This document shows, piece after piece, positions 23,485 through 32,206 of a stretch of DNA of 32,445 bases. The notes under the pieces are model-generated. The model did not search any database and had not been told where the DNA came from. It was given only the letters and a program-made list of their open reading frames with translations. How positions within the stretch are numbered: position 1 is the stretch's first letter; every line of letters begins with the position of its first letter. A program made the position numbers and the translations under genes. This DNA comes from a virus (Duplodnaviria > Caudoviricetes), in IMG/VR virus record IMGVR_UViG_3300031999_000124, positions 1-32,445 of that record; one strand, written 5' to 3'.

Positions 23485-23714
23485 TATTGATATAACTCGT
23501 TTATTCTGTTTATAACATCGGCATCAGTCCATTGACCAATAGCATCGTATTCCTCACCTTTCCATAAAACAATACTAAATCCTTCTAAAAGATTTGCAGT
23601 AACTATTTTTCTACTTGGTCTATCTATTATAGAATTTATTGTTACCGATGTAAATATATTCTTTACCTCTGGAGTAACAACCATTTCCTTCTGTGTTTCA
23701 AATGTTATTTCCAT
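23484..23714 (-). CDS. Hypothetical protein (possible fibre-associated)
   Basis: 76 aa, TAATG-coupled on both sides. Confidence 0.55.
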   Translation of the reverse strand: MEITFETQKEMVVTPEVKNIFTSVTINSIIDRPSRKIVTANLLEGFSIVLWKGEEYDAIGQWTDADVINRINELYQ

Positions 23715-23956
23715 TATTTTTTACTTTTAGATTTTATCTTCTTTTCTTCTACTAACATAACTTTAGTAGGTTTCTTACCAGATCCTTTATTCTTACGGAT
23801 GTTATCCCAAAGACCAGGTTTAGACATAGAACCATCAGCACGTTTAATCATTGCACCAGTTTGAGCTTTCTTAAACTCTTTACCATGAACCTTCATGAAG
23901 GCTTCTTCCGATGGGTATTTCTTGTAAAATTCTTTCTGGGTCTTGCATCCAGACAT
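23714..23956 (-). CDS. Chimeric basic protein; C-half duplicates 25067-25213
   Basis: MIKRADGSMSKPGLWDNIRKNKGSGKKPTK... matches the upstream small ORF. Confidence 0.6.
   Translation of the reverse strand: MSGCKTQKEFYKKYPSEEAFMKVHGKEFKKAQTGAMIKRADGSMSKPGLWDNIRKNKGSGKKPTKVMLVEEKKIKSKSKK
23762..23791. repeat. 30-bp perfect direct repeat, copy 1
   Basis: TTTAGTAGGTTTCTTACCAGATCCTTTATT, identical at 25115-25144, within ~140 bp of homology. Confidence 0.9.
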
Positions 23957-25066: not shown

Positions 25067-25213
25067 TTATTTTTTAGTTTTAGCTTTAATTTTCTTCTCT
25101 TGAACTAACATTTGTTTAGTAGGTTTCTTACCAGATCCTTTATTAGCACGGATATTATCCCATAACCCTATTTGTGAAGTAGAACCATCTTTACGTTTGA
25201 TCATCTCTTTCAT
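25067..25213 (-). CDS. Small basic protein (not in ORF track)
   Basis: Hand-translated as MKEMIKRKDGSTSQIGLWDNIRANKGSGKKPTKQMLVQEKKIKAKTKK (48 aa). Confidence 0.75.
   Translation of the reverse strand: MKEMIKRKDGSTSQIGLWDNIRANKGSGKKPTKQMLVQEKKIKAKTKK
25115..25144. repeat. 30-bp perfect direct repeat, copy 2
   Basis: Identical to 23762-23791. Confidence 0.9.
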
Positions 25214-25219
25214 ACTAAT

Positions 25220-25507
25220 TTACTTTCTACCTTTAGTTATCTTATAGTGTTTACCACTCTCTTTCTTTGTACCTTCTCCTTCATTACCTCTATTCTGTTT
25301 AACAGACTCGAATCTACCATCTTCATGATCGTAATCCTTATCTTTGGCAGAAGGATTTTTACGATGCATTCTCTGTGATTCTGCTTTCTTTGCAGTTCTA
25401 TCGTCAGTCTTAGCATAGGCAAGATCTCTCTCTGCTTTAGCCTTAGCCGCTTTAGGAGATAATTTTTGTTTCAATAAAGGTGACTTACTTCTTAATTCAA
25501 ATGCCAT
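25220..25507 (-). CDS. Basic protein with minimal HNH-like motif
   Basis: Likely start MAFELRSK at 25507, which avoids overlap with the upstream gene; KDYDH...ESVKQNRG resembles a reduced HNH motif. Confidence 0.55.
   Translation of the reverse strand: MAFELRSKSPLLKQKLSPKAAKAKAERDLAYAKTDDRTAKKAESQRMHRKNPSAKDKDYDHEDGRFESVKQNRGNEGEGTKKESGKHYKITKGRK
25485..25507. repeat. 23-bp direct repeat (start-codon leader), copy 1
   Basis: TTACTTCTTAATTCAAATGCCAT versus TTACTTCTTAATTCAAATCCCAT at 27100-27122 (22/23 identical). Confidence 0.85.
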
Positions 25508-25508
25508 A

Positions 25509-27122
25509 TTATTTCTTTTTATTTCCACTAAACATCATACTTCCACCAATAGCACCAGCAACTGTATAAGGATTAACTATTGAATGTTTAAAATCAATAT
25601 TACCACCAGTACCTTTCTTACCTTCAACTTTAAATTTAAGTTTACTAGGAAGTAATGCTTCTTTTTCACTTGTAAATTGTCCGCCTCTAACAGAATTAGA
25701 ATAAAGTGTAGATTGACCAGCAGGTGCTTTTATCTCACTTCTAATTTTACCAAATCCAGAAGCAACATTTTTATCTATCGATGTACTAACGAATGATCCT
25801 GGTTTCCATATATCACCTTTTTGTAGATCACTAAAAGCAACTGAACCTTTTGGCAATTTCTCACCATTTCTCCAAATTTTCTTTACCGCGTAATCTTTAT
25901 CTCCTCTGTATAGAGTTTCTTCTGATTTTAATTTATTCTTAGTAACTAGATTTTCAAGTCTAGGAGCTATATCTTTTTTATAAAACTTCTTATTTACAGT
26001 ACCATCTATATGCGCAGTTCTTCCGTTTATCTTACTATCATAACCTTGACTGTAGACATTGTTTAATAATTCATCTGTTTTTGTATATCCAGATTCACCT
26101 ATTCCATGTTTACTTTCAAAAGCATAGTCTTGTTTTATCTTATCTTTCATACTTGGTCTGTGGAGACCAAATTCTTCTGCATGTTTAAATTTATCAGATT
26201 GCTCTTTAATTACATTACTAACCAACGGATCTCTTTTACCTGCATCAGTTCCTTTTAATCTAGCAAATAGGTTAGCATCTCTTTCACTATAAGAAGCGCC
26301 ATGAGTCGCTTCAAACTCCTTTAAATGCTTACCTGTCTCTTCACCAATTTTTCTAAAAGATTTTTCTGTGTCATTTTTCCATTTTTCAGAAAACTTATCA
26401 TATAAAGTAGGTTCTTCACTAGCATCATCTAAGTGTCCAACTATCTTTTTCTGTGGTTCCTTCCCAGTCTTACTGAAGTTCATTATATTGTCTAAAGTAG
26501 AACTAGATGCTCCTTGTTTACTAGGTGCTTTATTAGTTTTTAGTTTATTTGCAGAACTTACTACATCATCGACTTTACCAACGCTTTTATCTAAAGTCCT
26601 AACTACATTTTTAGCTGTATAGTTCTTACCTTTAATTAATCTTTCGGCAAGTTTAACTTCTCCAACTATAGATGCTGCTGCTGGAAGAACTTCTAAAGCA
26701 TCTACCGCGGCATTCTTAAAATCTCTCTTAGCAGAAGGTAGTTTACCTTTAGCAACATTAGATACGCCAGACGCTGTATTATCTATTGCTGAAAGTCCTT
26801 TCTTAGCATAGTAAAAAGGATTAACAATGTCTACTACATTATCAAGAATATTCCTAGGACCTTTACCAAAGTTTCTAGGCATTTCCTCATTCCTCGCAGC
26901 ATATCCAAAAGCAGTCAAAGGATTTAACATTTGATCAATATTCTTCTGCATGCCAAGTTCACTCTTAGAACCTAACTGTTTTATATCTCCAGCCTTCTCC
27001 TTCATTGAAGCAAGTCTTTCACCTTCCTTCTGTCTATCTGTCTTAATAGGTATAACCTTAGGTTTTGCAACCTTGGTACTTTCTGTTACTACTTTATATT
27101 TACTTCTTAATTCAAATCCCAT
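25509..27122 (-). CDS. ADP-ribosyltransferase (R-S-E, VIP2/ExoS/T4 Alt-like) with long N-terminal region
   Basis: C-terminal TLYRGD, SFVSTS and SEKEALLP motifs in canonical order. Confidence 0.85.
   Translation of the reverse strand: MGFELRSKYKVVTESTKVAKPKVIPIKTDRQKEGERLASMKEKAGDIKQLGSKSELGMQKNIDQMLNPLTAFGYAARNEEMPRNFGKGPRNILDNVVDIVNPFYYAKKGLSAIDNTASGVSNVAKGKLPSAKRDFKNAAVDALEVLPAAASIVGEVKLAERLIKGKNYTAKNVVRTLDKSVGKVDDVVSSANKLKTNKAPSKQGASSSTLDNIMNFSKTGKEPQKKIVGHLDDASEEPTLYDKFSEKWKNDTEKSFRKIGEETGKHLKEFEATHGASYSERDANLFARLKGTDAGKRDPLVSNVIKEQSDKFKHAEEFGLHRPSMKDKIKQDYAFESKHGIGESGYTKTDELLNNVYSQGYDSKINGRTAHIDGTVNKKFYKKDIAPRLENLVTKNKLKSEETLYRGDKDYAVKKIWRNGEKLPKGSVAFSDLQKGDIWKPGSFVSTSIDKNVASGFGKIRSEIKAPAGQSTLYSNSVRGGQFTSEKEALLPSKLKFKVEGKKGTGGNIDFKHSIVNPYTVAGAIGGSMMFSGNKKK
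27100..27122. repeat. 23-bp direct repeat (start-codon leader), copy 2
   Basis: See 25485-25507. Confidence 0.85.
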
Positions 27123-27154
27123 GATAACATTATTAACTTTGGTATAGATATACT

Positions 27155-27179
27155 ATCACACGGAATTAGTGATTTTTAC
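27155..27179 (-). promoter_or_regulatory. Putative late promoter at the start of the late region
   Basis: GTAAAAATCACTAATTCCGTGTGAT, 32 nt upstream of the ART start codon. Confidence 0.6.
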
Positions 27180-27194
27180 TATAATACCACACTG

Positions 27195-27237
27195 TGACAA
27201 TAGCCTATTACTCCTTTATTCTAATACCCTAATGTCA
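27195..27237. repeat. TGACA...TGTCA element, copy 1
   Basis: TGACAATAGCCTATTACTCCTTTATTCTAATACCCTAATGTCA; similar copy at 30017-30060. Confidence 0.8.
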
Positions 27238-27242
27238 TAGTA

Positions 27243-27293
27243 TTGTATCATATTATAGACAAAAACAATCATTATGTCCGTAATATAATGCAA
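27243..27293. repeat. Imperfect inverted repeat (19-bp arms)
   Basis: TTGTATCATATTATAGACA versus reverse complement TTGCATTATATTACGGACA (15/19); 13-nt loop. Confidence 0.6.
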
Positions 27294-27386
27294 AGTATAA
27301 TTTACAAAAAGGCATGTTATCGTAAAATATATTTAATGTTATAAAAAAAAATAATAAAAAAAATTTTTTCGTATTTCATATTTCGA

Positions 27387-27420
27387 TATGAGATATAGGG
27401 AATTATGAGATATAGAGAAT
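27387..27420. repeat. 17-bp tandem repeat
   Basis: TATGAGATATAGGGAAT TATGAGATATAGAGAAT. Confidence 0.85.
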
Positions 27421-27565
27421 TTAGGGGTTACTACTTTGTTTTCTATTTTTAATTTCAAAAGGGAAATGGTTTTTGAATTGGCGGGTTCCCCAACTTTTTA
27501 AGGTTTTAGATTGTATGATGAATGAAATGAAATGAATGTCGGGATTTGGATTGAGGTTTTATAAT

Positions 27566-27655
27566 TGCTATACACACACGGAGTTACTCTATTATTTATA
27601 TTATTTATATTTATATATATACACGGAGTTACCATTTTTATATGAAGATAATATA
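27566..27655 (+). promoter_or_regulatory. Early element 1 (half copy plus full CACGG-N20-GATAATATA)
   Basis: TGCTATACACACACGG at 27566; ACACGGAGTTAC duplicated; CACGG at 27622 and GATAATATA at 27647. Confidence 0.75.
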
Positions 27656-27715
27656 TTTGAATTTAAATTATATATAAATTAATTATATATATTAACCCTA
27701 AATTCAACAACAACA

Positions 27716-27946
27716 ATGAATACAATCACCACCAAAAGATTTGTGATTAGAAAATCATTAATCGGAACTAACACAGTAATTAGTTTCACCAACAACAAAT
27801 CAGTCGTGTGTACTTACAACCATGACAAAGTGTATGAACAACTTAAAGATAAGTTCGACAGTATGCCGTGCTTCGCTAAGTATGGTAGTTACACTAACAC
27901 TAACGATCTACCTGTGTTTGTGAGAACACTTAAGGAGTTAGTATAA
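27716..27946 (+). CDS. Early small protein, paralogue A1
   Basis: 76 aa, TTKRFVIRKSLIG family; 63/76 identical to A2 by hand alignment. Confidence 0.85.
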   Translation: MNTITTKRFVIRKSLIGTNTVISFTNNKSVVCTYNHDKVYEQLKDKFDSMPCFAKYGSYTNTNDLPVFVRTLKELV

Positions 27947-27952
27947 TGAACA

Positions 27953-27979
27953 GACCTAAGCAAGTCACTAAACTGCTTA
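27953..27979 (+). ncRNA. Pseudoknot-like structured RNA element, copy 1
   Basis: GAC-C-TAAGCA-A-GTC-ACTAAAC-TGCTTA; covaries with copy 2. Confidence 0.65.
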
Positions 27980-28004
27980 TTTTATTAATCTTAATCTAAT
28001 AATC

Positions 28005-28187
28005 ATGGAACAATTAATTAAGTCTTACGGACAGTATTTAGAAAGTATATCAAGGTCTGATATGTTTAACTCAGAAGGTAATTATAATGAGATATTGGTT
28101 GAATATCATAATAAGTTTAAATGGTATGCAGACAATGGAAATGAACAAGAGAGAATTAAAGCTAACTTTTTATTAAACATAATGTAA
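28005..28187 (+). CDS. Hypothetical early protein
   Basis: 60 aa, AT-rich leader with A at -3. Confidence 0.65.
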   Translation: MEQLIKSYGQYLESISRSDMFNSEGNYNEILVEYHNKFKWYADNGNEQERIKANFLLNIM

Positions 28188-28188
28188 T

Positions 28189-28287
28189 ATGAGATACATA
28201 AAAGCATTCTTCAGTATGATAAAGTATCAACTGATGTTAGGAGCATGGATTGCAGTATACTTTGTGATACGATTTATCATAGGGTAA
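28189..28287 (+). CDS. Single-TM peptide (not in ORF track)
   Basis: MRYIKAFFSMIKYQLMLGAWIAVYFVIRFIIG (32 aa); fills the gap between the previous stop and a terminator. Confidence 0.5.
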   Translation: MRYIKAFFSMIKYQLMLGAWIAVYFVIRFIIG

Positions 28288-28293
28288 TTAATT

Positions 28294-28323
28294 AAGGGAT
28301 GTCGAAAGGCATCCTTTTTTTTT
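28294..28323 (+). terminator. Rho-independent terminator
   Basis: GGATGTC-GAAA-GGCATCC followed by T9. Confidence 0.9.
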
Positions 28324-28335
28324 ACGAGTAATTTC

Positions 28336-28380
28336 TGCTATACACACACGGACTTACGCGTTTTACAGTCAGATAATATA
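28336..28380 (+). promoter_or_regulatory. Early element 2
   Basis: TGCTATACACACACGG-N20-GATAATATA. Confidence 0.8.
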
Positions 28381-28425
28381 ACTGAAGATTAATTCTGATC
28401 TTTATAACCTTAATACCATATTACC

Positions 28426-28659
28426 ATGTCAAACACAATCACTACAAAAAGATTCGTTATCAGAAGAAGTCTTATTGGAACAAACACTGTTATTTCTTTT
28501 ACTAATAACAAAAATGAGTTAATGACTTACGACCATGACAAAGTCTATAACGCACTAAAAGACAAGTTTGAAGCGATGCCCTGTTTCGCTAAATACAACT
28601 CTTACACTAACACTAATAACTTACCAGTATTTGTTAGAAATCTTAAAGAGTTAGTATAA
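28426..28659 (+). CDS. Early small protein, paralogue A2
   Basis: 77 aa, same family as 27716 and 29637. Confidence 0.85.
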   Translation: MSNTITTKRFVIRRSLIGTNTVISFTNNKNELMTYDHDKVYNALKDKFEAMPCFAKYNSYTNTNNLPVFVRNLKELV

Positions 28660-28665
28660 TTAAAT

Positions 28666-28692
28666 GACCTAGACAAGTCACTAAACTGTCTA
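28666..28692 (+). ncRNA. Pseudoknot-like structured RNA element, copy 2
   Basis: GAC-C-TAGACA-A-GTC-ACTAAAC-TGTCTA. Confidence 0.65.
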
Positions 28693-28700
28693 TTTTACTA

Positions 28701-28734
28701 CACGGACTCACAGGATATGTGGTCAGATAATATA
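28701..28734 (+). promoter_or_regulatory. Early element 3
   Basis: CACGG-N20-GATAATATA without the TGCTATACAC box. Confidence 0.75.
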
Positions 28735-28757
28735 TTAAACCTTTAAATATTTATACC

Positions 28758-29009
28758 ATGAAAAAATTAATTAAATTACTTAAGAATCAGTTTCCTTATT
28801 CCAGTAACCAAGATCCAGAAAAATACATGGAAATGGTAATGGATTTTATTTACGAAGAAATTAAACCAGAATTAATACCTACTGAAGAAGAGGATATAAC
28901 TGATGAGGTATATGGTTCAGGTTTATTTAATAGGTATTTCGACCTGTTAGGGGACGACGACCATTCTTGTTTAATATCCGATATTACCGAGTTTATTAAA
29001 AACAGGTAA
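28758..29009 (+). CDS. Acidic early protein
   Basis: 83 aa, D/E-rich centre, with its own promoter element and terminator. Confidence 0.75.
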   Translation: MKKLIKLLKNQFPYSSNQDPEKYMEMVMDFIYEEIKPELIPTEEEDITDEVYGSGLFNRYFDLLGDDDHSCLISDITEFIKNR

Positions 29010-29024
29010 TAAAACTTAAATAAT

Positions 29025-29043
29025 ACCCTCGAAAGGGGGTTTT
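29025..29043 (+). terminator. Rho-independent terminator
   Basis: ACCCTC-GAAA-GGGGGT followed by TTT. Confidence 0.7.
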
Positions 29044-29047
29044 ACTT

Positions 29048-29093
29048 TGCTATACACTTCACGGATTTACAACATTTATAGCGAGATAATATA
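29048..29093 (+). promoter_or_regulatory. Early element 4
   Basis: TGCTATACACTTCACGG-N20-GATAATATA. Confidence 0.8.
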
Positions 29094-29127
29094 CTTGAAT
29101 TTAATAATAACTTAATACCTATTTACC

Positions 29128-29418
29128 ATGAAATCAACTAAAAACTATCCTTTCACTCAACAAGAGATGTTGGATTTTAGAAACTTAAACATTGAAGAGG
29201 TGGATATTCTAATACTTAAATATAGTAGTGGAATATACGACCTATTATTTAAAGAAGATTTACTAACCTTTGAGTATAATGAAGATTATGACCTATCTAT
29301 GACTCATACTTACGAGTTATTTAGTGATTGTGAGTTTGAAGAATTACTTGATAACAGTGAAAACACTAGTGAAAGCGATGATAATGGAGTTACTTATGAA
29401 ACACAAGTGATTTACTAA
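29128..29418 (+). CDS. Highly acidic early protein
   Basis: 96 aa; about 23 D/E versus 5 K/R by hand count. Confidence 0.75.
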   Translation: MKSTKNYPFTQQEMLDFRNLNIEEVDILILKYSSGIYDLLFKEDLLTFEYNEDYDLSMTHTYELFSDCEFEELLDNSENTSESDDNGVTYETQVIY

Positions 29419-29433
29419 AATAATCCACTAAAT

Positions 29434-29456
29434 AAGGTCACTACGGTGGCCTTTTT
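29434..29456 (+). terminator. Rho-independent terminator
   Basis: GGTCAC-TACG-GTGGCC followed by T5. Confidence 0.85.
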
Positions 29457-29543
29457 ACTCTACTTAATTGTGGAATTGGCAGGCAGAGCCGACTTTTGTC
29501 CTTACTATTTACTATTAATAGTCAAATATCATGGTGATTACTA

Positions 29544-29589
29544 TGCTATACACTACACGGACTTAATATTTTAATGGTCGGATAATATA
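29544..29589 (+). promoter_or_regulatory. Early element 5
   Basis: TGCTATACACTACACGG-N20-GATAATATA. Confidence 0.8.
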
Positions 29590-29636
29590 TTCGAAGTTTA
29601 AATAATTATACTTCATAACCTTTTAAATAAATTACC

Positions 29637-29942
29637 ATGACAAAGTCAAAAAACTCAGCAGTCGTAGCAAAAACCATCGCTCCTGCAACTTCAACAGTAA
29701 CAACTGTTACTAAAAACGCTATAACGACTAAACGCTTCGTTATTCGCAAGTCATTAATTGGAAGTAATACTGTAATTAGTTTTACTAATAACAAGTCAGT
29801 AGTATGTACTTATGACCACGACTTAGTATATAACGCTTTTAAAGCGAAATTTGACTTAATGCCTTGCTTCGAAAAGTACGGAAGTTATACTAATACTAAT
29901 AATCTTCCCGCTTTCGTTAGAGCGTTACCAGAATTAGTATAA
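29637..29942 (+). CDS. Early small protein, paralogue A3 (N-terminally extended)
   Basis: 101 aa; 61/75 identical to the A1 core, plus a ~25-aa T/A/V/K-rich extension. Confidence 0.85.
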   Translation: MTKSKNSAVVAKTIAPATSTVTTVTKNAITTKRFVIRKSLIGSNTVISFTNNKSVVCTYDHDLVYNAFKAKFDLMPCFEKYGSYTNTNNLPAFVRALPELV

Positions 29943-29952
29943 TTAATTAATC

Positions 29953-29979
29953 AAAGTCACCTTCGGGTGGCTTTTTTTT
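29953..29979 (+). terminator. Rho-independent terminator
   Basis: GTCACC-TTCG-GGTGGC followed by T8. Confidence 0.9.
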
Positions 29980-30016
29980 ATTTATTTTTAAGTAATATAA
30001 TCACTACAAGAAACTA

Positions 30017-30060
30017 TGACAATAGCCCCTTACTCTTTCCTAATTAATAGCCTAATGTCA
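30017..30060. repeat. TGACA...TGTCA element, copy 2
   Basis: TGACAATAGCCCCTTACTCTTTCCTAATTAATAGCCTAATGTCA. Confidence 0.8.
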
Positions 30061-30115
30061 CACTTTTTACTGATTAACTGTATGGTGTTCCATTTCTGTT
30101 TCTTGCAAGTTGAAG

Positions 30116-30162
30116 TGCTATACACCACACGGCACTATTTAATAATAAAGTCGGATAATATA
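30116..30162 (+). promoter_or_regulatory. Early element 6
   Basis: TGCTATACACCACACGG-N21-GATAATATA. Confidence 0.75.
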
Positions 30163-30197
30163 CCCAGTTAAAAATTAATAATTAAACACTTTACACC

Positions 30198-30356
30198 ATG
30201 ACTAAATTAGTTAAAAAATTGCTCGACAAGTTTTCCAACAAGAGATTTGGAATGACTCCATTAAATGAAGAACATTACCAACTATTACTGGTAGAATTCT
30301 TGAATGAAGTTGGCTTTATTGAGGTAGAAGTATCTTCTAAGCCAGATAGAGACTGA
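30198..30356 (+). CDS. Small early protein (not in ORF track)
   Basis: MTKLVKKLLDKFSNKRFGMTPLNEEHYQLLLVEFLNEVGFIEVEVSSKPDRD (52 aa); ACC-ATG start after element 6. Confidence 0.7.
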   Translation: MTKLVKKLLDKFSNKRFGMTPLNEEHYQLLLVEFLNEVGFIEVEVSSKPDRD

Positions 30357-30419
30357 TAGAGAGACAGTAATATACTCTCAGTACTATTTATTCTTATAAA
30401 CATTTTAACACCTTAAACC

Positions 30420-30665
30420 ATGCAAGAATTACTCAACAAGATTTCCACAATTAAAGGAATTATAGACTATTCCATAGAACCAGGTTACTGGCAAGATGAA
30501 ACAGGTGAAGAAGTCCCTGTTAACTTAATAATATTAACTCATTCTTTCGATGCTTTCGATGACTTCATTTACCAAGGTTTACTTGATATATTTCCAGAAA
30601 ACACTGATGAGTATGAAGATGATGAAGATTATTATACTTCAACTTTCATAAATTACGAAGTTTAA
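30420..30665 (+). CDS. Highly acidic early protein
   Basis: 81 aa; about 20 D/E versus 2 K. Confidence 0.75.
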   Translation: MQELLNKISTIKGIIDYSIEPGYWQDETGEEVPVNLIILTHSFDAFDDFIYQGLLDIFPENTDEYEDDEDYYTSTFINYEV

Positions 30666-30670
30666 TTCCG

Positions 30671-30704
30671 CACGATACTATTTAATATTTAGTCGGATAA
30701 TATA
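30671..30704 (+). promoter_or_regulatory. Early element 7
   Basis: CACGA-N20-GATAATATA. Confidence 0.7.
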
Positions 30705-30746
30705 TTCGAAATTAATTTATATTTAACCCTTTAATACCACTTTAAA

Positions 30747-30953
30747 ATGACTACAAAAATTCCAAGTTTCAAGCGCAGAGAAACAACTATTTATTTAAAC
30801 AAAGTTAAATACACTGGTTTTCCAATTGGTTACTTACCAAAGCGATTTGCCTTCATCTATGACCAAGAAAATGACCAAGAAGGTCTGTACTCGTGGTTCA
30901 ACTACAAAGGTTTAACCTATATTAACGCTAACGACCTTAAAACTGGTTGGTAA
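30747..30953 (+). CDS. Hypothetical early protein
   Basis: 68 aa, aromatic-rich, after element 7. Confidence 0.7.
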   Translation: MTTKIPSFKRRETTIYLNKVKYTGFPIGYLPKRFAFIYDQENDQEGLYSWFNYKGLTYINANDLKTGW

Positions 30954-30966
30954 AATAAATATAACT

Positions 30967-31134
30967 ATGTATATAACAGTATTAGACTACGAAAGTGGCA
31001 AAGTAATAATCGAACAAGTCGAAGATATAATAGACTACGAAGAGTATGTAGATGATAACTATGGATTAAAGAATTGTCACTACATGACTACAGAGAAATT
31101 AGACTTAAATATTTTAACCATTAAAGATAAATAG
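30967..31134 (+). CDS. Small acidic protein (not in ORF track)
   Basis: MYITVLDYESGKVIIEQVEDIIDYEEYVDDNYGLKNCHYMTTEKLDLNILTIKDK (55 aa); fills the gap exactly. Confidence 0.7.
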   Translation: MYITVLDYESGKVIIEQVEDIIDYEEYVDDNYGLKNCHYMTTEKLDLNILTIKDK

Positions 31135-31135
31135 T

Positions 31136-31387
31136 ATGTCACCAGACGCTTTAAAAGCCCACAAGTATTGTAAAGAGTACAAGAAAAATAAATTAAACGA
31201 GCATAAAATTGCTCACGCATCAGAACGACCATGTAGTGGTCTAACTAGTCAGGAATGGATGTTAATGTCTGTTCGTCAGAAATCTACTTTTAAAAAGAGT
31301 AAGAGGTTTAGTTGTAATCGACTATGGAACCACCTAAGCGTTCCAACAGAGCAAGGATTTTTAACACTAACAATTAAAGTAATTTAA
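31136..31387 (+). CDS. Basic hypothetical protein
   Basis: 83 aa in a tightly packed operon. Confidence 0.65.
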   Translation: MSPDALKAHKYCKEYKKNKLNEHKIAHASERPCSGLTSQEWMLMSVRQKSTFKKSKRFSCNRLWNHLSVPTEQGFLTLTIKVI

Positions 31388-31388
31388 A

Positions 31389-31781
31389 ATGGCACAACTA
31401 GTAGAAATTAACAGAGAGTCTAAAGAAGTTTATGAAGCTACATTATGTAGTAAAATACCAAAGAAATACAGAAACGACTTCTTTGCAGAATTATTAAGAC
31501 AACGAGGTAAAATAGCGGCAGCTTATTTCTTGATAGACGATGACGAAGGTATATTAGCAGAAGCATTCGACTGGCAAGAATCAGTTAAAGGTAAAGAGTT
31601 CTGGAGTAATCTAGAAAACGAGATGCTTACTAAAGCAGGTATGATAGTAGTTAAAAAAGAAGACGCTATGTTAGATATATGCTCTGAAAAATTAAATAAT
31701 ATCATAGACAAACGTAGCGAAGAATTAGCTGCTATACACGCTGATATGAGAAAATTATTAGAATTATTAAAACAAGTATAA
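31389..31781 (+). CDS. Hypothetical protein
   Basis: 130 aa; AFDWQESVKGKEFW motif and C-terminal coiled coil. Confidence 0.7.
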   Translation: MAQLVEINRESKEVYEATLCSKIPKKYRNDFFAELLRQRGKIAAAYFLIDDDEGILAEAFDWQESVKGKEFWSNLENEMLTKAGMIVVKKEDAMLDICSEKLNNIIDKRSEELAAIHADMRKLLELLKQV

Positions 31782-31783
31782 CC

Positions 31784-31903
31784 ATGGCAGAACAAGAAAG
31801 GTTTGAGAGAATATCTAGATTTCATGAGTGGATGCTTAAAATAGGTAATGTATACTTACATAGTAATCCTATGATGGAAAGTGCTTATAATAGAGTAGAA
31901 TAA
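31784..31903 (+). CDS. Tiny protein (not in ORF track)
   Basis: MAEQERFERISRFHEWMLKIGNVYLHSNPMMESAYNRVE (39 aa); ACC-ATG start 2 nt after the previous stop. Confidence 0.6.
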   Translation: MAEQERFERISRFHEWMLKIGNVYLHSNPMMESAYNRVE

Positions 31904-31953
31904 TAACTGTCTTGGTAATGCAGTTTGGTGGATCGTAGTAATACGGTCGGGTA

Positions 31954-32015
31954 AGTCAGGTGAATTGGTTCGGTAGGCTGAAAACTACAAGTGGGTTCGA
32001 CTCCCACCCTGACTA
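31954..32015 (+). tRNA. Miniature/atypical tRNA-like gene (Phe-like loop)
   Basis: Acceptor stem AGTCAGG/CCTGACT; T-arm GTGGG-TTCGACT-CCCAC; reduced D-arm GAA-TTGG-TTC; anticodon arm GTAG-GCTGAAAA-CTAC; only 62 nt. Confidence 0.6.
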
Positions 32016-32035
32016 CTAATTTTAAATTTATATAT

Positions 32036-32206
32036 ATGAGTGCAATGGCTAGGTTAAACCAGTTAGCATCGGAAGTATACGGTGCGAAAGAATTTGTTAC
32101 ATTAACTAAATTTGAACAAGAATTAGTTACAAGTCTTTACGAGTTAGATGACACGTTTGACCCCACGGACTTTAAATTAATCGAGTGGGATAATATATAT
32201 GAATAA
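32036..32206 (+). CDS. Hypothetical protein (start revised to ATG 32036)
   Basis: The track's GTG start lies inside the tRNA-like T-arm; the ATG after an AT-rich leader gives 56 aa. Confidence 0.6.
   Translation: MSAMARLNQLASEVYGAKEFVTLTKFEQELVTSLYELDDTFDPTDFKLIEWDNIYE

Follow-up and report, generated by a model that had tools for sequence, protein, structure and literature searches.

Small phage genes can be multiplied by recombination where dose matters, as described for T4 tifA, whose segmental amplification against ToxIN arises rapidly in experimental evolution (PMC9391042). Repetition of another kind is reported for the PeSL cassettes of T4-type phages, in which a repeated promoter and stem-loop bound small variable genes and form a likely substrate for modular shuffling (PMC2839356, PMC4122927). 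Among small phage proteins, the sponges Acb2, Tad1, Tad2, Acb4, Sequestin and Lockin are described as short, often <100 aa, and positively charged, their defining feature being a homo-oligomer with positively charged inter-protomer pockets (bioRxiv 10.1101/2025.07.12.664507), whilst phi29 p6 wraps DNA and is essential as an organiser of the genome (PMC10899789). On the bacterial side, Swt1-family HEPN domains of conflict systems are fused to partners that include AAA+ ATPase, winged helix-turn-helix, Vsr restriction endonuclease and transmembrane domains (PMC3710099). The subject of this analysis is a set of three paralogous genes, A1, A2 and A3, in the virus record IMGVR_UViG_3300031999_000124 (32,445 nucleotides, ~51% complete), referred to throughout as the window. 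They constitute a real, old and selected triplication of an uncharacterised family, which has a concrete link to bacterial conflict proteins and whose functions discussed below are putative.

An amplified early phage gene is of a kind already known, and the A genes share with tifA the multiplication of a small gene. In contrast to tifA, however, the A copies are ancient, synonymously saturated and furnished with a cassette each, and they have neither a sequence link to tifA nor a named target. Their repeated promoter-like and stem-loop elements resemble PeSL in architecture only: the motif and the phage group are different, and here the hairpin is nearly confined to one family, itself multiplied. 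The only sponge traits found in A are size (76, 77 and 101 aa) and charge (isoelectric point (pI) 9.4-9.8), and no described sponge was among the family, sequence or fold search matches listed. Like p6, which acts on DNA as a multimer, A is a small phage protein with a fold of its own and a putative DNA-binding role; unlike p6, it is multi-copy, went undetected in some members of the phage group and is fused to enzymes in bacteria, and p6 was not among the fold-search matches listed for the A1 model. Finally, a bacterial protein that joins HEPN to the A domain (P0253/L024) follows the Swt1-family pattern of HEPN plus accessory domain, although the A domain is not among the partners named above and, in the phage, the accessory domain forms a protein by itself.

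All three open reading frames (ORFs) lie where an initial annotation, made from the sequence alone, had placed them (Table 1). Its description of an ~76-aa protein holds for A1 and A2 but not for A3, because the latter carries an N-terminal extension. Over an ungapped core of 73 codons, protein identity is 60/73 for A1-A2, 60/73 for A1-A3 and 57/73 for A2-A3 (78-82%), and the heavy divergence claimed for third codon positions is evident, with 37, 42 and 40 of 73 differing in the same order. The codons quoted for ITTKRFVIR and the four common residue patches are likewise present in the sequence. By the Nei-Gojobori method, the proportion of synonymous differences (pS) is 0.69/0.79/0.72 and that of nonsynonymous differences (pN) 0.17/0.14/0.22 for A1-A2/A1-A3/A2-A3. 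The ratio of nonsynonymous to synonymous rates (dN/dS), proposed as a check on the age and selection of the copies, is 0.10 for A1-A2 and 0.11 for A2-A3, far from 1, and is undefined for A1-A3, where dS is saturated. Orthologues are also under purifying selection: compared with the copies of a related locus (L032), A1 against copy 1 gives pS 0.21 and pN 0.012, and A3 against copy 3 gives pS 0.20 and pN 0.018.

Within genomes, none of the 29 copy pairs has pS below 0.65, which shows that the copies have not been homogenised and which differs from the near-identical recent copies of a tifA-type amplification. The nearest synonymous kin of each window copy is the same-position copy of another phage (0.19-0.47), and in the close clade the A copies are thus old positional lineages. 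The reading of old, selected copies is upheld by these results. They also render neutral redundancy or an assembly artefact highly improbable; repeated motifs make duplication easier, and the ends of several contigs fall within a copy, but synonymous saturation with intact frames, low dN/dS and same-position orthologues in independent records are contrary to either. Less was left of the patchy residue sharing between copies, to which the initial annotation had given weight. Codon-level permutation gives p 0.40-0.99 over all polymorphic codons and 0.25-0.85 over silent codons, and p reaches 0.038 and 0.030, for two pairs, only with a site-level statistic that takes no account of codons. Gene conversion as a source of the patchiness therefore finds no support at the codon level, and the copies are old and under purifying selection with no clear sign of it.

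The A family comprises 1,882 clusters at 90% identity, from 1,891 candidates, and 246 representatives at 50%. Copies were counted across relatives in 26 near-complete records chosen because they bear the gene (8 + 18): one copy is present in 10, two in 9, three in 5 and four in 2. With a single copy in 10 of the 26 carriers, the triplication is not the special state that it had been taken for. One record (G033) was counted as having four copies, three of its seven matches lying in an end duplication, where a 4.9-kb stretch with three A copies stands at both record ends (99.3%; L058, L092); this arrangement, seen in one record only, may be a long terminal repeat or an assembly overlap. In eight close relatives, selected through A itself, A is 67-100% identical in all eight, whereas neither ORF 28005 nor ORF 28758 was found in any of them; a similar degree of conservation is seen for ORF 32220 in six. 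In a sample chosen through the terminase and made up of the longer contigs (19 of 80 loci), A is present in four of 19 records and in three of the six near-complete ones, the other three, with no detected A, having 63-66% terminase identity. In addition, tblastn returned no match to A in 50,697 GenBank phage records, which include relatives at 46-64% terminase identity. Because of these missing cases, A is a strongly conserved subclade trait, present in varying dose, rather than a universal core gene.

This distribution bears on the proposal that, through divergence, the paralogues became inhibitors of distinct alleles of a host target. Three positional lineages do persist across phages, each keeping a few diagnostic residues, mostly at positions 27-33 in the beta-hairpin, as such divergence would predict. 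Nevertheless, the proposal is improbable and poorly supported: 33 copies agree at 40 of 72 positions, dN values are low, copy number varies from one to four, the middle positional class is missing in L043/L044, and distant clades duplicated A independently, according to a tree with few columns and many open forks.

In the ORF map, A1 is the opening gene of a rightward arm of small genes. Across 78 loci (taken from 107 plus the window, excluding duplicate contigs, bacterial loci and loci lacking upstream DNA), a distance of 186-2,325 bp separates the last leftward gene from the first A copy, and in 60 of these loci no ORF of at least 50 aa intervenes, making A the first rightward gene. On account of this position and a promoter-like motif, the A genes are probably early. 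An early element of its own had been claimed for each copy, and a match to CACGR-N20-GATAATATA does precede all three. The window holds seven exact matches, all on the rightward arm, against none in each of 100 shuffles, and in 14 close genomes all 35 A copies have their own motif. Following the motif, a leader hairpin of -4 kcal/mol or lower occurs in 30 of these 35 A cassettes against 3 of 25 other cassettes, a comparison among related genomes in which a test overstates significance; among the five A cassettes outside the count is A1, which has a longer leader with a folding energy of -9.0 kcal/mol. In the window, the leaders of the five motif copies that precede other genes have no comparable hairpin. 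At their 3' ends, 17 of the 35 copies have a pseudoknot-like element, 15 a terminator, and 3 are cut off.

The pseudoknot-like element, which matches no Rfam family, follows A in 22/22 cases among 56 A-selected loci. It was rejected as an A-specific signal since only one of 128 matches follows an A gene in an unbiased IMG/VR scan; the element, 26-28 nt long, stands a few bases past stop codons in many unrelated phages (L108-L230), the 128 matches falling in 123 stretches and 95 of them no more than 60 nt away from the end of an ORF, with a modal distance of 6 nt. Between cassettes and behind terminators, a further conserved element (TAATTGTGGAAT..GGCAGGCAGAGCCGAC-like) is found at 29476-29492 and in L032, L033, L035 and L046.

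A high share of codons ending in C (NNC) is a marker of high expression. This share is 0.48-0.61 in the A genes and 0.46 in a 488-aa virion gene, compared with 0.16-0.28 in the portal, terminase, GroEL and 1133-aa genes. Taken together, cassette design and codon use would be expected to yield abundant, stable messages. The dosage explanation offered initially for the copies fits both features. In one RNA run, 7% of the words were present; the contigs of this run derive from relatives, span A1 and A3 without A2, and are no proof of transcription.

An early position and a specific leader would also suit a core regulator or genome organiser of the phage subclade, unrelated to host defence, whose copies supply amount. 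Such a protein could resemble phi29 p6, or could be an activator or autoregulator that works through the CACGG-N20-GATAATATA promoters or the hairpin of its own leader. The first-gene position, the conservation of A in close relatives that lack ORFs 28005 and 28758, the basic character of the protein and the near confinement of the hairpin to A cassettes are all consistent with this. The failure to find A in half of the near-complete terminase relatives and in the GenBank phage records argues against it. This reading also leaves unexplained the bacterial fusions to HEPN and UDG-like domains described below. It is regarded as an unlikely explanation, if the most serious of the competitors.

AlphaFold2 confidently models A1 (from 99 sequences) as a small alpha/beta domain with a predicted local distance difference test score (pLDDT) of 91.5 and a predicted TM-score (pTM) of 0.78. 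The A proteins stand out as basic amid mostly acidic neighbours, and the median net charge of the core is +5.5 over 116 domains. Conserved residues are F8, G17, Y34, H36, D37, C52, F/W53, K55, Y56, Y59, T60 and P66. H36, D37 and C52 are >90% conserved, but a catalytic Cys-His-Asp triad is disfavoured because the L020 copies lack the H and D and L233/L234 lack the C. Ocr-type DNA mimics have a strongly acidic surface, and A was rejected as such a mimic because it is basic. No credible family was found for A1-A3 in Pfam, PHROGs, PADLOC or NCBIfam. The 99 alignment members gave only scattered weak Pfam matches and weak PHROG matches (the best common one, phrog_2971, in 8/99 at E 0.005), searches against PDB sequences gave none, and the ESM Atlas gave no usable match for A1. 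Foldseek with the A1 model returned 0 matches at E up to 0.001 in PDB and BFVD, and no usable structural match overall. The suspicion of a known housekeeping family, raised at the outset as a caution, thus produced no confident match in the family databases or the fold search. Nor was a paper on the A family found in the literature, where an unnamed protein is not searchable by name and supplements could hold an unnamed cluster.

Relatives of A outside phages are found in Flavobacteriales genomes and metagenome proteins, where proteins of 228-372 aa carry the domain at their C-terminal end or close to it, behind N-termini that are unrelated to one another. One partner, a Swt1-HEPN domain, scores above the Pfam cut-off (P0253/L024) and is solid. 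A HEPN-A fusion is encoded in the Robertkochia sediminum genome, divergent from a neighbouring gene that is presumably a WYL regulator. Two further partners are leads: a uracil-DNA glycosylase (UDG)-like domain (Atlas 0.91; PF03167 on 29% of members) and a GreA-C-like domain (sub-threshold, E ~0.001-0.003). The partner in L025 is a conserved domain without a name; read by eye as HNH-like, it lost this label because its model (pLDDT 64.5) has no fold match, and no family match was found either. Modularity is further apparent in two proteins whose A domains are 61% identical and whose N-termini are unrelated, in a tandem pair of A domains (P0130) and in stand-alone genes in variable islands. In total, the cellular domain is present in 6/401 Flavobacteriales genomes, one of which is the seed; a scan based on P0128 gave one partial match, which the profile did not confirm. 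Cellular and fused domains fall in several groups of the phage/cell tree, with at least four label changes forced by its starred branches, which suggests that phages and bacteria have exchanged the domain repeatedly; the tree has 74 columns, is unrooted and cannot order transfer events. The cellular copies of L232-L236, L025 and L026 sit in variable Flavobacteriales islands beside repeat proteins that we take to be DUF285/BspA-like, and island neighbours include a YraN-like nuclease (L234) and umuDC-like genes (L233).

On this evidence, A is tentatively interpreted as a bulk nucleic-acid-binding shield or decoy that was duplicated for dose, the reading preferred here even though it is held with less than even confidence. 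The domain is appended to an RNase-family and probably to a DNA glycosylase-like domain, and is basic and aromatic; nucleic-acid binding is therefore its simplest predicted property. Similarly, a protein that is made on its own and first, and to which as many as four cassettes are dedicated, is most simply one that the phage needs in bulk. A would thus be a small basic nucleic-acid-binding domain, needed early and in large amounts, that acts stoichiometrically in phage-host conflict. Most likely, it would cover phage DNA or RNA, or occupy the sites of host nucleic-acid enzymes that carry the same domain. The copies would be largely interchangeable dose units, each a self-contained cassette of promoter, 5' hairpin, gene and 3' end that was duplicated long ago, probably by recombination between repeated motifs, and was then held by selection. 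The initial annotation had called the triplicate a strong anti-defence candidate; a link to conflict systems does exist through the bacterial Swt1-HEPN fusions, but the anti-defence role stays putative.

Several points weigh against the shield or decoy. Family, PDB and fold searches found no relative of known function, and for the window phage both binding and expression of A are inferred. HEPN is the only solidly named fusion partner, and fusions are so rare that most hosts may have no enzyme to match. A small-ligand sensor explains the fusions equally well, and strong conservation with a fixed first position also fits a housekeeping role. Lastly, since the positional lineages keep a few diagnostic residues, the copies may not be fully interchangeable.

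CARF and SAVED domains are sensors that switch on bacterial effectors. By analogy, A could be a nucleotide-signal sponge, in its strongest form a ligand-sensing domain that switches on effectors such as HEPN and whose bare phage copy soaks up the signal. Its short, positively charged form, like that of known sponges (bioRxiv 10.1101/2025.07.12.664507), the dose-oriented cassettes and the HEPN fusion would all accord with this. Conversely, no sponge family is among the 25 of 31 Pfam families listed for the 99 members, and there is no fold match. Reading the ORFs by eye near eight bacterial copies, six of them in loci of only 2-3.5 kb, revealed no cyclase, TIR or similar synthase, and UDG-like and GreA-like partners are not known as typical signal-activated effectors. 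A sponge is accordingly considered rather doubtful. A related and comparably doubtful scenario sees in the A domain a sensor or reader module, so far undescribed, on Flavobacteriales defence effectors (the Swt1-HEPN RNase, the UDG-like glycosylase and others). The bare, amplified first product of a very large group of aquatic phages would then be a decoy that captures the ligand or target site of the effectors. The reverse is also possible, namely that the phage domain was taken up by bacteria on several occasions and serves as a built-in bait through which the effector would sense the most abundant early phage protein.

Whichever of these models is correct, a large and very conserved family stands first in the putative early arm of a widespread uncultured phage group, with neither a family model nor a fold match; unlike the transient amplification described in T4, its triplication is stable and ancient. 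Should the bare domain act against effectors built with this domain, the two would form a new defence/counter-defence pair in aquatic Bacteroidota, which could be tested with a single cultured bacterium, Robertkochia sediminum, and a protein of 76 aa. If A is instead a genome organiser, a new nucleic-acid-binding fold would still be probable.

Table 1. Features of the A cassettes and their surroundings, in window coordinates
Feature	Position	Strand	Remarks
Strand-switch gap, A+T-rich	27123..27715	.	Between leftward (virion, GroEL) arm and rightward small-gene arm; 451/594 bases A or T
Half-copy of motif (TGCTATACAC..CACGG), without GATAATATA box	27566..27581	+	Upstream extra; repeat family D6
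Promoter-like motif CACGG-N20-GATAATATA, cassette 1	27622..27655	+	Putative promoter
A1 leader hairpin, long, A/U	27657..27707	+	-9.0 kcal/mol over 60-nt leader
A1	27716..27946	+	76 aa, pI 9.4; predicted compact beta-beta-beta-alpha-alpha-alpha-beta domain
H-type pseudoknot-like element just 3' of A1 stop	27953..27978	+	Generic phage element
Intrinsic terminator ending A1 + ORF28005 unit	28294..28317	+	
Promoter-like motif, cassette 2	28347..28380	+	
A2 leader hairpin	28383..28404	+	-6.3 kcal/mol, z -3.7
A2	28426..28659	+	77 aa, pI 9.6; 'NELMTY' positional class
Pseudoknot-like element 3' of A2	28666..28691	+	Stem 2: two-sided change relative to A1 copy
Promoter-like motif, cassette 3	29556..29589	+	
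A3 leader hairpin	29593..29614	+	-4.5 kcal/mol, z -3.3
A3	29637..29942	+	101 aa, pI 9.8; 28-aa low-complexity Ala/Thr/Val/Lys N-terminal extension, then core
Intrinsic terminator 3' of A3	29953..29974	+	
Five more promoter-like motifs (28701, 29060, 30128 with 21-nt spacer, 30671, 32164)	28701..32197	+	Before unrelated small genes

The leftward arm of the window encodes portal, terminase, virion proteins and GroEL. The terminase is ~46% identical to that of Flavobacterium elemo phages, and Cellulophaga phages are among its 87 matches. Group 2 Flavobacteriaceae phages are described as phi38:1-like and as carrying GroEL (PMC5332604), the Pervagoviridae/Pachyviridae serving as comparison families (PMC8776804). 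In gene content and in the hosts of its terminase matches, the window phage fits this GroEL-bearing group, and a Flavobacterium-type host appears probable. Terminase identity to the cultured phages is only ~46%, however, and none of them has a detectable A gene.

Other features of the window lie outside the A cassettes. The whole A block is bracketed by a 26-nt direct repeat (85%) at 27191-27216 and 30013-30038, ~2.8 kb apart. Of the small genes interspersed with and following the A copies, five within 28005-30665 encode strongly acidic products (pI 4.05-5.7), unlike the basic A proteins, and these are possible DNA mimics or partners. An element at 31954-32015 (+) resembles a tRNA, scoring 25.9 bits against the Rfam tRNA model, below the gathering score of 29; ARAGORN reports no tRNA, and the element is possibly a degenerate one.

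The first gene of the leftward arm (25509-27122, -) encodes 537 aa with an ADP-ribosyltransferase domain (PF03496, E 3e-10) and weakly matches the PHROG of phage RNA polymerase ADP-ribosylase. As it was not found in the loci of the eight close relatives, it is a variable gene, whose product is perhaps delivered with the virion. It shares an N-terminal motif, MxFELRSK, with the small leftward ORFs 23714-23956, 25067-25213 and 25220-25528 (-), and a 138-nt repeat of 80% identity lies between the ORFs at 23714 and 25067. This common motif suggests either a second paralogue set or a common targeting peptide.

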